Source: a virus (Duplodnaviria > Heunggongvirae > Uroviricota > Caudoviricetes). Taken from it: a stretch of 24,450 bases of DNA. A program made the translations under genes and the position numbers. How positions within the stretch are numbered: position 1 is the first letter of the stretch; each line of letters opens with the position of its first letter. Of the stretch, positions 6,886-21,298 are shown piece after piece. The notes under the pieces are model-generated. The model made no database searches. It was not told the origin of the DNA and saw only the letters and a list, made by a program, of their open reading frames with translations. The stretch is taken from the IMG/VR virus record IMGVR_UViG_2534681774_000030; one strand, written 5' to 3'.

Positions 6886-7018
6886 TTTTTGGGACTCCTG
6901 GCTGATTAAGTATGTCGATAAGGCGTTTCCATCCGTCACGTAATTTACGGGTGATTCGTTCAAGTAAAGATTCGGAAGGGCAGCCAGCAACAGGCCACCC
7001 TGCAATGGCATATTGCAT
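6854..7018 (-). CDS. cIII: Lambda cIII (FtsH inhibitor)
   Basis: Manual translation [54 protein letters not shown] (54 aa); below the ORF-track length cutoff. Confidence 0.9.
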   Translation of the reverse strand: MQYAIAGWPVAGCPSESLLERITRKLRDGWKRLIDILNQPGVPKNGSNNYGYPD

Positions 7019-7090
7019 GGTGTGCTCCTTATTTATACATAACGAAAAACGCCTCGAGTGAAGCGTAATTGGTATGCGGTAACGCCGCGC

Positions 7091-17703: not shown

Positions 17704-18663
17704 TTAAAAAAAGAAGGTGATTGCTCCATTTATAAATGAATAGTCATCCCCTGTCTTGAATTCTGATGTTACTTTATTAAATGCTAGTGTGAAGGCTACA
17801 GGTGCATACCCAATTGTTGCGCCAACTTGATATTCATCAACAGTTTTGTTTAGCGATACTGTTGTTTGTTTCGTCTGTATTGTTTTTCCTTCGAGAGTAT
17901 AGTTGCGATTGACATCTCGTCTTTCCATACCTGCAAAAATCTTGTATTTGAATCCGCTTGTATCGGACATATGCATTAAACCACGGGGAGCCAGCAGACC
18001 AAAGCCATTATCCGAATTGAAGGTTTTATCATTACCAATGGCAATGGTTGCGCCATATGCTACATATTGAAATAAGTTTCCAGTAACAGCAGAAACTTCA
18101 GGGTATAATCCAACATTAGCACCTAAAATATCCATACTTGGTGTCATGGATAGCATCCCTTTTACAGTATAACCGTAGCGATTCTCTATTTGATCATCCC
18201 ATGCATGATATTTTTCTGCCCCAATAATCTCATGAGCTTTATTTTGTACTTTCTGACCGCCTGCGTCGGGGCCAACAACACCTATGTCAGTACCTAATCG
18301 ATAGCGAATCCAGTCATTCGCAAGGGAGTTCCATTCAATACCAGTGTGAGTGTATGCACTAAAAGCTCTGTCTCCAGTTACGGCTGTGTTGTGTCTTTTA
18401 TTACTGCCTGATGGAGAGTAAATATCTTGCGCAATATGGAGAGATAATTGGCTCGAGTCTGAGATATCGTGGCTATATCCCAGAAATAAGCCTTGTGAGT
18501 AATCATCTCTGTTTTCATGTTTATTGCCATAAATATCATTAAGTATTGGTTGAAACTTCCCTGCATCATCATTTGCTAATGATAATGCAAGGCTGTTCGC
18601 GATAGCTGAACACGTGGTAAATGACAGAGCAATAAAGACGCCAGCGATGACACTTTTTTTCAT
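17704..18663 (-). CDS. Outer-membrane beta-barrel protein (319 aa, signal peptide, C-terminal Phe); possibly LpxR-like lipid A 3'-O-deacylase
   Basis: Signal peptide MKKSVIAGVFIALSFTTCSAIA; alternating amphipathic beta-strand pattern; C-terminus ...AITFFF; the 319-aa size equals what I recall for the Salmonella LpxR precursor; AT-rich flanks. Confidence 0.6.
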   Translation of the reverse strand: MKKSVIAGVFIALSFTTCSAIANSLALSLANDDAGKFQPILNDIYGNKHENRDDYSQGLFLGYSHDISDSSQLSLHIAQDIYSPSGSNKRHNTAVTGDRAFSAYTHTGIEWNSLANDWIRYRLGTDIGVVGPDAGGQKVQNKAHEIIGAEKYHAWDDQIENRYGYTVKGMLSMTPSMDILGANVGLYPEVSAVTGNLFQYVAYGATIAIGNDKTFNSDNGFGLLAPRGLMHMSDTSGFKYKIFAGMERRDVNRNYTLEGKTIQTKQTTVSLNKTVDEYQVGATIGYAPVAFTLAFNKVTSEFKTGDDYSFINGAITFFF

Positions 18664-19138
18664 ATGTTATTGTCTTCCTTTTTTTTGAATGGTGCGCGTA
18701 TTTTACATACATGAGTTTGTAATACAAGGTGCGTAATCAATATGATGTTTTATAATTGCGTGAGACAATTGATTTATTTGTTTTTTATTGTGGTTTTTAT
18801 TATCTTTTAATGTAACGGTGTTTTTATTAAGTGTGTTTGCGTGGTGTTTTATGTTTTTTATAATTTTTATTTTATTAAATTTAAATGCATTAGTAATGGC
18901 TATTCTATATAGCAATATAAGAACTGTTACAAAAAAAGGGGGGGCAATTACAGGTAGTTATGGATGATGAGTGAAACAGATATTGGAGAACCGGGGAATG
19001 AATGATGTCTGAGTCTTATATATCAGAACTCCTTCGCTGTCGCTGGGGGCTCCTGTGCTTATGTCGTTTCCCCGATTCGGTTTTGAACGATTACCGAATG
19101 TTGAAGAATTATGCCAAAATATAGAAAGGATTTACTGC

Positions 19139-19828
19139 ATGAATACCCAATATTTACAGTATGTTCGTGAGCAACTTATGGCAGCTACTGCTGACTTGAA
19201 CGGAGCAACGAAAGGCCAGCTCGAAGCCTGGCAGGAGCATGCACAATTTGATACTGGTACATACAAACGAAAGAAGCCGCGCATTCTGGATGTGGTAACT
19301 GGCAAGATGATTACGCTGGATAATACGCCGACTTCCGGTAAGCAGTCGTACGCAAAAGGTTCATCCATTGCTTTGGTCAGCCCGGTTGAATTCTCAACCT
19401 CTTCATGGCGCCGCGCGGTTTTGTCTCTCGATGAACATCAGAAAGCATGGTTGCTTTGGTGTTACAGCGAAAGCGTTCGATGGGGGCATCAGGTCACCAT
19501 AACGCAATGGGCATGGAGCGAGTTTAAAGATTTGTTAAGTAACAGAAAAATTGCAGGTAAGACACTGGATCGCCTGAAGACGTTAATCTGGCTGGCTGCA
19601 CAGGATGTGAAGAGCGAACTTGCAGGGCGTGAGGCCTATGAATACCAGACACTGGCATCATTGGTGGGAGTGACAACAAAAAACTGGTCCGAGACATTTA
19701 CTGAACGCTGGGTTGCAATGAAGCACATTTTTCTACAGCTTGATAGTGATGCTTTATTGCTTGTGACGAGAACACGTTCAAAACAAAAGGCAGCATTTTT
19801 ACAGCAAAATATTGCAAAACTGGATTAA
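19139..19828 (+). CDS. Candidate late-gene antiterminator Q of a non-lambda (phage 82/Qin-type) family; start may be upstream at 19055
   Basis: About 230-aa ORF in the position between the nin region and the lysis genes, followed within about 50 nt by an intrinsic terminator; the family assignment rests on position and size, not on recognised sequence. Confidence 0.4.
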   Translation: MNTQYLQYVREQLMAATADLNGATKGQLEAWQEHAQFDTGTYKRKKPRILDVVTGKMITLDNTPTSGKQSYAKGSSIALVSPVEFSTSSWRRAVLSLDEHQKAWLLWCYSESVRWGHQVTITQWAWSEFKDLLSNRKIAGKTLDRLKTLIWLAAQDVKSELAGREAYEYQTLASLVGVTTKNWSETFTERWVAMKHIFLQLDSDALLLVTRTRSKQKAAFLQQNIAKLD

Positions 19829-19874
19829 AAGCCATATACTTCATGCAAATTTGGTATGTTGTAAAAAATGTATA

Positions 19875-19900
19875 AACCCGCTGCCGAGTGGGTTTTTTTT
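19875..19900 (+). terminator. Intrinsic terminator (ACCCGC-tgccg-AGTGGGT then T8); candidate tR' ending a short pR' transcript
   Basis: 7-bp stem with one G-U wobble followed by eight T residues, just downstream of the Q-like gene. Confidence 0.6.
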
Positions 19901-20039
19901 ATGCCCTGAGTTGTACTTGTACGGTAAACATGCTGGCTGCTATGTAATAGAGTTTTTTTAGCCTGTAACCTCTTGACGGCATTGAATTGCTTTTGTTATG
20001 AGTTGTAAGCCAATGTTATCATCTTGTATTGGGGTGGTT

Positions 20040-20756
20040 ATGAAGGATGGTGCGCTGCTCAGGAGTTCTTCACTTTTTATTGCCTACATGGGATGCCTTG
20101 GATGGGGGAGTGCTTATTTCTATGGATGGGGTACTTCTTTTTACTACGGCTTCCCATGGTGGATTGTAGGTGCAGGTGTTGATGATGTTGCCAGAAGTTT
20201 ATTTTTTGCAGTTATCGTCATTGCTATATTTCTTATCGGTTGGGGTATTGGTGTTGTATTCTTTTTCGCAGTGAAAAGAAAACATTCTATGCAAGAGCTA
20301 AATGTATTTCGCCTTTATTTTGCTGTGGAATTATTGTTTGTGCCGGCAATTATTGAGTTTTCTATATTGAGACAGAAGATTCAGGTACCTCTTTTGCTAC
20401 TGTCAGCAGCGATTGCGCTGGCGGTTACAATTTCGATAAGATCTTATGGGCGATTTTTATCGGTATCATGCTTCTATGATAAGCCATTTATAAAAAAACA
20501 TTTTTTTGAGATTGTGATGATTGCTTTTGTGGCATATTTTTGGCTTTTTTCATTTCTGACAGGATATTACAAACCACAGTTTAAGAAAGAATATGAAATG
20601 ATTAATTATAATGATGGTTGGTATTATGTTCTTGCTCGTTATGATAATTGTCTGGTTTTGTCTACTTCTTTCAATGCAGGTAGTAAAAGGTTTGTCATTT
20701 ATCAATCAGCACAAGATAAGAATCTTCAGGTTGATATTGTAAGGACCAGAATTTAA
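20040..20756 (+). CDS. Hypothetical polytopic membrane protein (about 238 aa) in the late-operon cargo slot between Q/tR' and nanS-p
   Basis: Start MKDGALL preceded by a GGGGTGG Shine-Dalgarno; Trp/Gly-rich N-terminus (GWGSAYFYGWGTSFYYGFPWWIVGAG) and at least four hydrophobic helices; AT-rich; unrecognised. Confidence 0.55.
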   Translation: MKDGALLRSSSLFIAYMGCLGWGSAYFYGWGTSFYYGFPWWIVGAGVDDVARSLFFAVIVIAIFLIGWGIGVVFFFAVKRKHSMQELNVFRLYFAVELLFVPAIIEFSILRQKIQVPLLLLSAAIALAVTISIRSYGRFLSVSCFYDKPFIKKHFFEIVMIAFVAYFWLFSFLTGYYKPQFKKEYEMINYNDGWYYVLARYDNCLVLSTSFNAGSKRFVIYQSAQDKNLQVDIVRTRI

Positions 20757-20889
20757 TTGGCTGCATAAATAATATTTTAAGTTGCAAGTTGGCTATTCGT
20801 AGGAATAGAACCTTAGGCATGCTGAATGCGTTTTCTGAACATTGTTTTATAAACTGTGTCTGCTTGCTGTTGTGATCCTGCTTTTAGTG

Positions 20890-21000
20890 ATGGTGATGAT
20901 GGATTTCACCAGCAGGATAATGTTGGTACTGACTGATGGCGCTCTGGTCTGCGGCATTGTGGTATTGCTGTGGCCGATGATGAAAGAACAGAATGAATAA
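20890..21000 (+). CDS. Possible small hydrophobic protein (36 aa)
   Basis: Manual translation MVMMDFTSRIMLVLTDGALVCGIVVLLWPMMKEQNE; one predicted transmembrane helix; no clear Shine-Dalgarno. Confidence 0.25.
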   Translation: MVMMDFTSRIMLVLTDGALVCGIVVLLWPMMKEQNE

Positions 21001-21185
21001 TTCTTGACTTTTTTGTTTACTGTTTATTAAAAAATCAACCGCATGGTGAATCCTCCTTGGAGGGGCTAAATGATCGAGTTTTAAGGGCACGTAGCGAGTT
21101 CTGTTTGATCATTGCAGAACTTAGCGGGAGGCGCCATGCGTACATCACTAGTGTTATTCCTTTTATCATTTTCCTTGTGAGTTCT

Positions 21186-21212
21186 GGCTGCGCATTGCGC
21201 AGCCTTTTTTTT
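21186..21212 (+). terminator. Strong intrinsic terminator (GGCTGCGC-att-GCGCAGCC then T8)
   Basis: Near-perfect GC-rich stem followed by eight T residues, about 90 nt upstream of nanS-p. Confidence 0.7.
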
Positions 21213-21298
21213 ATGACCTGCCACTGGCAGATGGTCATCCTGTGATTTGATTCCGCTTCCGGCTTTTTAACTCTGTTCCTCTACACGGGAGAAATTCG

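Follow-up and report, generated by a model that had tools for sequence, protein, structure and literature searches.

An exact copy of the pasD2 small RNA gene in the late region of phage 434

Introduction

Among the small RNAs (sRNAs) of EPEC E2348/69 is PasD2, one of the RNAs named pathogenicity-associated sRNA D (PasD). It was mapped to the plus strand of NC_011601.1 at 741157-741328, where it is 172 nt long and lies between E2348C_0687 and E2348C_0688 (PMC8550237 Table S6; Pearl Mizrahi et al.). In that strain it was detected by RNA-seq at high abundance (baseMean 11,017), its size was confirmed by Northern blot, and Hfq RIL-seq recovered chimeras between PasD2 and many mRNAs (PMC8550237). 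Its target motif is CUCACA(GG), which is complementary to a seed placed before the terminator (PMC8550237 Fig. S5 and supplementary file 9). The EHEC homolog was given the name EcOnc13 (PMC8550237 Table S6); our literature search for EcOnc13 gave no paper text on this name.

Two other groups of phage-borne sRNAs invite comparison. PasD and STnc100 (Rfam family RF02076) were proposed to share an ancestor (Zhu, Shabalina and Storz, preprint 10.64898/2026.05.13.724894), and STnc100 includes EcOnc27/sRNA103, which lies downstream of stx2B in Stx2 phages. The AsxR/AgvB anti-sRNAs and their convergent partners (Tree et al. 2014) are short terminated units downstream of the Q-dependent late promoter; they are expressed in lysogens and associate with Hfq. 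The relation of PasD to STnc100, the synteny with Q, LpxR and the esterase, and the presence of sRNA genes in the moron site of lambdoid phages are published already. Phage 434 is not mentioned in the survey preprint of Pas sRNAs, which reports two phage genomes carrying a non-identical variant. Here, we describe the pasD2 locus of phage 434, its relation to STnc100, and the alternative readings that this locus allows.

Results

The window analysed here is a stretch of 24,450 nt from a virus (IMG/VR record IMGVR_UViG_2534681774_000030), and all positions given below without an accession refer to it. A preliminary description had placed in front of nanS-p a short non-coding unit, transcribed on its own into 150-200 nt and ending at 21212. 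Over 541 bases around this locus the window matches the phage 434 record OL657226.1 at 100%. Positions 20990-21300 are also 100% identical to the pasD2 locus in prophage PP2 of E2348/69 (alignment of 311 bases), and the pasD1 locus is about 98% identical to the same stretch. Since the published ends 741157-741328 lie inside the fully identical aligned locus, PasD2 corresponds to 21041-21212 on the plus strand of the window. The published Northern probe site falls at 21173-21196 and shows the one mismatch that was described for PasD2. The two loci share the whole 172 nt and its flanks, including the seed, the terminator loop and the probe site. They differ in the replicon, which is an EPEC prophage in E2348/69 and the free-living phage 434 here.

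We are highly confident that the pasD2 gene occupies 21041-21212 (+) as a moron-type transcription unit of the late region of phage 434, and we take this as the best explanation of the whole locus. PasD2 is an already described and validated sRNA, not a new one. The proposed transcript was right in its extent, as the identical sequence yields the 172-nt PasD2 in E2348/69, and so was the guess that it might be a regulatory sRNA of prophages, as the same RNA was validated there and recovered by Hfq RIL-seq. The element exceeds what chance would give, as seen in its Rfam alignment, in its complete identity to pasD2 and in the comparison of its fold with shuffled sequences.

Gene order is the same in phage 434 and in E2348/69: LpxR, YlcG, a Q82-like antiterminator, a membrane protein of 248 aa, DUF3927/TciB, the sRNA and the SASA esterase nanS-p. 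PasD genes are recognised by an antiterminator Q and a lipid A deacylase LpxR within 10 kb, and both neighbours are found at the 434 locus, with lpxR at 17704-18663 on the minus strand and the gene of the Q82-like antiterminator ending at 19828. The element was matched in 696 of the 5,426 complete E. coli genomes, usually at several places per genome. Directly after the esterase stop codon the sequences of 434 and of PP2 diverge. PP2 has the PasA gene after the esterase and phage 434 does not: the PasA probe sequence is absent from 434 downstream of the esterase, even when three mismatches are allowed. In place of PasA, phage 434 has at 23152-23597 a terminator-like hairpin (23234-23262) and a pair of ORFs, 80 and 87 aa long, that overlap; these precede the holin gene.

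The predicted promoter of pasD2 starts with the -35-like hexamer TTGACT at 21004-21009 (+), 3 bases past the stop codon of DUF3927/tciB (20998-21000). This hexamer was noticed in the preliminary description, is where it was said to be, and is invariant in the PasD1 and PasD2 loci. It is followed after 17-18 bases by an A-rich -10-like box, TTAAAAA, at 21027-21033 (+), 7-8 bases before the 5' end of the RNA. A simple scan for the sigma-70 consensus called no promoter at the pasD2 locus, because the A-rich TTAAAA/TAAAAA box lacks the final T. Among 54 distinct upstream sequences of the element and its relatives, which fall into at least two unrelated types of context, the spacing between the A-rich box (TGTTAAAAG or TATTAAAAA) and the +1 G is constant in almost every case. 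The -35-like hexamer of the relatives reads TTGACT, TTGATT or TTGTCT and lies at a comparable distance.

At its other end, the unit closes with an intrinsic terminator at 21186-21212 (+), found by our terminator scan and annotated in the GenBank record of phage 434. Its stem and loop, GGCTGCGC-ATT-GCGCAGCC, occupy 21186-21204 and are followed by T8 at 21205-21212. The strength attributed to it in the preliminary description is confirmed: the stem has 8 pairs, 7 of them G-C, around a loop of 3 nt, the hairpin alone is worth -14.7 kcal/mol, and this is the best terminator-like site in the scan of 19000-24450. As a class, such sites are not enriched in the scanned interval (7 found vs 5.5 expected). 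Between the structured part of the RNA and the terminator lies a U/A-rich tail with little predicted structure (21140-21185, +), which carries the seed CCUUGUGAG at 21173-21181, extended by a (U) to 21182. The core of the published motif, UGUGAG at 21176-21181, lies just 5' of the terminator and is complementary to the CUCACA target motif, as expected of a PasD sRNA. The arrangement typical of Hfq-binding sRNAs, a terminator with a long U tail next to a single-stranded seed, is found here with an 8-bp stem, U8 and a U-rich tail. Bases 21140-21175 have a mean probability of 0.65 of being unpaired; for the seed core the value drops to 0.26, and this core is predicted to be partly paired. The tail of PasD2 shares no homology with those of STnc100 members.

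One potential target of PasD2 lies in its own neighbourhood. The minus strand carries at 18490-18499, within lpxR (nt 164-173 of the CDS), the candidate site ACUCACAAGG, an exact complement of the 10-nt seed. A fragment of E2348C_0684, the lpxR homolog of E2348/69, is among the PasD2 RIL-seq targets with the motif (PMC8550237). Taken from sequence alone the lpxR site is weak evidence, because 0.21 nine-mer matches are expected by chance in the window. By duplex energy between the tail and lpxR, the seed site does not stand out, since other windows score as well, and the case for lpxR as a target consists of an exact match over 10 nt and of the RIL-seq list published for PasD2. PasD2, a prophage sRNA, may regulate lpxR, its own neighbouring moron gene.

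The first 99 nt of the RNA (21041-21139, +) form a structured 5' domain that is common to STnc100, as delimited by the Rfam alignment and by an alignment with 24 relatives. The same alignments place helix P1 at 21041-21048 with 21132-21139, hairpin P2 at 21053-21057 with 21061-21065 and hairpin P3 at 21096-21103 with 21115-21122, all on the plus strand. Two GGA motifs, at 21059-21061 and 21127-21129 (+), fall in the invariant part of the domain. Structure and covariance, named in the preliminary description as a way of checking the proposal, came out in its favour, with an Rfam STnc100 alignment over the full length and a 172-nt RNA that is more stable than its shuffles (z = -3.07). When 24 distinct domains are aligned, 93% of the cells of a five-helix structure are paired; sliding the partners lowers this to 49% or less. 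In this alignment, three pairs of P3 have changes on both sides. P1, P2 and P4 are uninformative on covariation, because they hardly vary at all.

Strand S1 (AAUGAUCGAG, 21069-21078, +), directly 3' of P2, is complementary to the loop of P3 (UUUGAUCAUU, 21104-21113, +), and the two segments co-vary in four sequence classes. In one class AUCAGC in S1 faces GCUGAU in the loop, in another CUGGUG faces CACCGG, in a third UAAUGAC faces GUCAUUG, and the 434 locus represents the class in which AAUGAUCGAG faces UUUGAUCAUU. Duplexes between S1 and the P3 loop average -9.6 kcal/mol when matched vs -2.6 kcal/mol across classes. Counting the longest helix with G-U pairs allowed separated matched from cross-class combinations poorly, so that the separation is that of the duplex energies. 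In the formal count of pairs, 4 of 4 counted pairs of this helix changed on both sides; this count is limited to classes B-D because MAFFT sets the S1 of class A one column off.

Since S1 sits 5' of P3, the S1/P3-loop helix and P3 cross. The pairing can be either a pseudoknot, i.e. a kissing-type contact, or an alternative fold. The nested minimum free energy fold (-37.7 kcal/mol) includes S1 paired with the P3 loop. With P1, P2 and P3 enforced the energy is -30.2 kcal/mol, to which the S1/P3-loop contact adds about -9.9, so that the two folds are predicted to be close in energy. A helix of 10 bp in a loop of 11 nt is sterically unlikely and hence, probably, either only the core of the complementarity pairs or the folds alternate. 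The contact is mentioned in neither of two papers examined, which used RNAalifold, a program that cannot predict pseudoknots; the preprint on Pas sRNAs and STnc100 does not mention a pseudoknot.

This structure also accounts for two features to which the preliminary description had given another meaning. The palindrome CCTCCTTGGAGG is present at 21052-21063, and so are GGAGG (21059-21063) and the four codons and stop ATG ATC GAG TTT TAA (21070-21084), described as a mini-ORF behind a Shine-Dalgarno sequence. The sequences stand and the translation signal does not: GGAGG forms the 3' arm of P2, and S1 contains the AUG (21070-21072), i.e. both are structural parts and not a translation unit. The association of a Shine-Dalgarno with four codons is incidental because relatives with other S1 sequences have no AUG at that place.

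The locus matches the STnc100 family as modelled by Rfam, without reaching its threshold. Positions 21011-21215 (+) align end to end with RF02076 (model positions 1-206) at 41.4 bits and E 3.8e-7, a score just below the gathering score of 47. At gathering thresholds, Rfam gave nothing at the pasD2 locus and no STnc100 match for PasD1; the match to PasD2 was found by a search on E-values. The score falls below threshold because PasD has a shortened P2 loop, lost P4 and has its own tail and terminator. The helices P1, P2 and P3 of the STnc100 consensus can all form in PasD2. The P4 hairpin CCGGGAGGCACCCGG is not kept: it is replaced by AGCGGGAGGCGCC and its 3' arm is missing. On this comparison of sequences, we assign PasD2 to the PasD/STnc100 family.

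A scan of viral contigs with a variable-gap pattern gave about 120 loci with relatives. Those tested against the Rfam model score 77-148 bits and are true members of STnc100; L004, a locus returned by another pattern, proved to be unrelated sequence. The relatives share the order of elements in the 5' domain, namely GCAUGGUG (the 5' strand of P1), AAUC, P2, S1, a variable insert, P3, P4 (CCGGGAGGCACCCGG) and CACCAUGC (the 3' strand of P1). The tails and terminators that follow are not homologous between subgroups. STnc100 and PasD2 have in common the geometry of the promoter, the +1 G, P1-P3, the S1/P3-loop contact and a location in the moron site, between pR' and nanS-p. They differ in the P2 loop (6 nt in STnc100 vs 3 nt in PasD2), in P4, deleted in PasD2, and in the 3' tail, seed and terminator, which are not homologous.

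Some of these loci have compositions of their own. The relatives scored at 77-148 bits include hybrids. Three hybrids (L040, L034 and L097) combine an STnc100 5' domain with a PasD-type terminator and nanS-p leader, which links the two groups. The 3' modules of STnc100/PasD units look freely exchangeable. Units of the STnc100 type also occur in tandem, with two to four copies, each with its promoter box, in about 1.3 kb upstream of a single nanS-p (four copies in L009, two each in L122 and L124).

Discussion

Taking the published data on the identical RNA together with the organisation of the 434 locus, we propose that RNA polymerase would start at a promoter proper to pasD2 (TTGACT, 17-18 bases, A-rich -10 box), with the G that opens P1 as +1, and would end at the strong intrinsic terminator, producing in lysogens an abundant non-coding RNA of 172 nt. 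P1 would close a domain holding P2, P3 and the covarying S1/P3-loop contact, and this domain may be a stabilising or protein-docking scaffold. The 3' module, exchangeable and non-homologous among relatives, would consist of a U-rich single strand with the seed CCUUGUGAG and then the terminator. The seed (21173-21182) would pair with CUCACA(A/G)G motifs in its targets, which for the identical RNA are published as mRNAs from both the core genome of the host and accessory elements, and the U8 tract would bind Hfq at the 3' end of the RNA. In a lysogen, the terminator would shield nanS-p and the lysis genes from a constitutive sRNA promoter. During lytic growth, the polymerase from pR', modified by Q, would read past it into the same genes. 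This organisation resembles that of the AsxR/AgvB anti-sRNAs in the short terminated unit downstream of a Q-dependent late promoter, the expression in lysogens and the association with Hfq. PasD2 is about three times longer than these RNAs of 51-60 nt, has a large structured domain, and no convergent partner gene typical of AsxR/AgvB pairs is visible beside it in phage 434.

The role of Hfq is less straightforward than the RIL-seq data would suggest. According to the main text of PMC8550237, the Pas sRNAs depend on Hfq for stability, as judged by Northern blot. In Table S2 of the same study, PasD1 and PasD2 are unchanged or slightly up without hfq, unlike PasA, PasB and PasC, and for PasD2 the RNA-seq change in the hfq deletion is a non-significant log2FC of +0.55. 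A level that stays steady without Hfq is unusual for a classical Hfq-dependent sRNA, and it points to protection of the RNA by the compact 5' domain or by another protein. The main partner of PasD2 might then be CsrA and not Hfq, with the GGA-bearing 5' domain as its docking site; PasD2 would either titrate CsrA or guide it to the RNAs paired with the seed, as PasE does. Among CsrA ternary complexes, the pair of PasD2 with the yjbJ 3'UTR ranks first in abundance, at over 23,000 chimeras or 20% of the total (preprint 10.64898/2026.08.12.744399). PasE, in the same strain, guides CsrA by means of a seed and two GGA sites, and two GGA motifs also occur in the invariant part of the PasD2 domain. 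Yet, there are just two such motifs, of which the second is predicted to be fully paired (probability of being unpaired 0.00) and the first is half in a stem, at the edge between the P2 loop and its stem. Moreover, the association of CsrA with PasD2 comes from chimeric reads in a preprint, and it was Hfq RIL-seq that gave a coherent seed motif. We regard a primary role of CsrA as rather unlikely, although it is compatible with the identification of the locus as pasD2.

More generally, the invariant 5' domain of PasD and STnc100, with P1-P4 and the S1/P3-loop contact, might be a dedicated docking or sensing module, an idea that we consider doubtful in the present state. In one version it would bind CsrA, and the family would be made of guides that combine a constant scaffold with an exchangeable seed, their 3' modules being swapped by phage recombination. 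In another version the nested and pseudoknotted folds would be the two states of a switch coupling a signal to the expression of the downstream nanS-p.

This last version touches on the second option of the preliminary description, an attenuator controlling nanS-p. The element would be a cis-acting leader, possibly riboswitch-like, whose domain senses a ligand or a protein, and the sRNA would arise as a by-product of termination, which might also act in trans. SreA and SreB of Listeria have this organisation, with a structured 5' domain, a terminator and a co-oriented gene, and their terminated product acts in trans. We know of no ligand for the 5' domain of PasD2. The promoter, the structured domain, the terminator and nanS-p are indeed co-oriented, with 86 bases from the U tract to the ATG, and the invariant segments, covarying helices and pseudoknot-type contact make an aptamer-like pattern. 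A nanS-p homolog also lies 257-1291 nt downstream, on the same strand, in 103 of the 132 occurrences of the family in viral contigs, which are not independent of each other. But the linkage is not obligate, as PasD1-type loci lack the esterase, and it can be explained by joint inheritance of the moron block. PasD1 is the same RNA followed directly by the lysis genes, so that, in contrast to riboswitch sRNAs of the SreA/SreB type, the downstream gene is dispensable. Nor did we find an alternative antiterminator. Before the 3' arm of the terminator has been transcribed, the competitor of its 5' arm is modest (-12.6 vs -14.7 kcal/mol) and lies inside the variable insert, relatives share no homology between the domain and the terminator, and neither the search for competitors of that arm nor the comparison of the relatives' 3' modules gave conserved, mutually exclusive terminator and antiterminator pairings. 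Many relatives have at least two terminators and a convergent sRNA gene before nanS-p (see also Tree et al. 2014), and trans targets are documented (PMC8550237). We find a leader function unlikely; the attenuator has gained no positive support, given that no conserved antiterminator was found and that PasD1 has no esterase downstream. The 86-nt leader of nanS-p contains, right after the U tract at 21213-21238 (+), an imperfect hairpin (AUGACC UGCCA c UGGCA gau GGUCAU), which the PasD1 locus has without any change and the STnc100/PasD hybrids in almost identical form.

Another question is whether the RNA starts where it is transcribed. PasD2 might be cut from a longer transcript, either the tciB mRNA or the late pR' transcript, with the P1 helix setting the 5' end that survives. 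The 5' end falls exactly at the base of this 8-bp helix, as expected for a nuclease-resistant end, and the -10 box is non-canonical. Furthermore, the published 5' end was derived from RNA-seq read coverage and not from an assay of primary transcripts (TSS), and that study assumes that PasA arises by processing of a longer RNA (PMC8550237). Against this, two unrelated types of upstream sequence both place the A-rich box and the -35-like hexamer at a fixed distance from the +1 G. Expression of E2348C_0687, the gene upstream, is about 300-fold lower than that of PasD2 (baseMean 37 vs 11,017). Late transcription in lysogens should stop at the tR'-like terminator at 19874-19904, yet PasD2 is abundant there, and for the STnc100 promoters of Salmonella an RpoD ChIP-exo signal was reported (PMC10794520). 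Processing is thus quite improbable in our opinion, and transcription of pasD2 from its own promoter is the reading that we retain.

That the locus is instead a protein gene is scarcely credible: a 62-codon ORF with a TTG start does exist, is annotated in OL657226.1 as the 62-aa putative membrane protein CPT_434_70 with an RBS (21057-21245, +), is mostly called hypothetical protein in many RefSeq E. coli genomes, and some EDL933 copies of STnc100 have ribosome footprints, their ribosomal coverage reaching 3.2 (PMC5331693), but the frame is not a gene because it passes through the intrinsic terminator, its stop codon lies beyond the RNA 3' end at 21212, the ORFs over the element match no Pfam family, and an additional T in PasD1 shifts the frame after residue 34 and replaces the whole hydrophobic C-terminal half. 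RefSeq has pseudogenes or opposite-strand ORFs at this place in E2348/69, and conservation follows base pairing, not codons. The preliminary description had seen no convincing protein product, which the lack of a Pfam match and the broken frame in PasD1 bear out. CPT_434_70 and the RefSeq hypothetical proteins at this locus are most likely mis-annotations, and an ncRNA feature should replace them.

What may be new here is the exact copy of PasD2 in phage 434, the covariation between S1 and the P3 loop, and the exact complement of the seed in lpxR, all of them minor. The case serves as a positive control, in that a validated sRNA gene was recovered from sequence alone at a locus that the public annotation of phage 434 calls the CDS of a membrane protein. 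Phage 434 in E. coli K-12 is a safe and classical genetic system, which would allow PasD2 to be studied outside a pathogen. We see leads for experiments, and not discoveries, in the structural observations (how S1 co-varies with the P3 loop, and the modularity of the 3' ends) and in the match of the seed within lpxR.

Finally, other elements of the window deserve mention. A scan for tRNAs found none in the window. The early-left region, on the minus strand at 6973-7031, has the lambda cIII thermoregulator (Rfam RF01804, 88.5 bits), as expected for a lambdoid phage. Right after the Q82-like gene, the interval 19812-19904 (+) carries a promoter-like site (TTGCAA, 17 bases, TATACT) followed by a terminator at 19874-19895 and a run of T, which looks like a short pR'-tR' late leader. 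It matches Rfam STnc240 weakly, at 28 bits and below threshold. This interval could encode a second small terminated RNA, presumably comparable to StxS of Stx phages.
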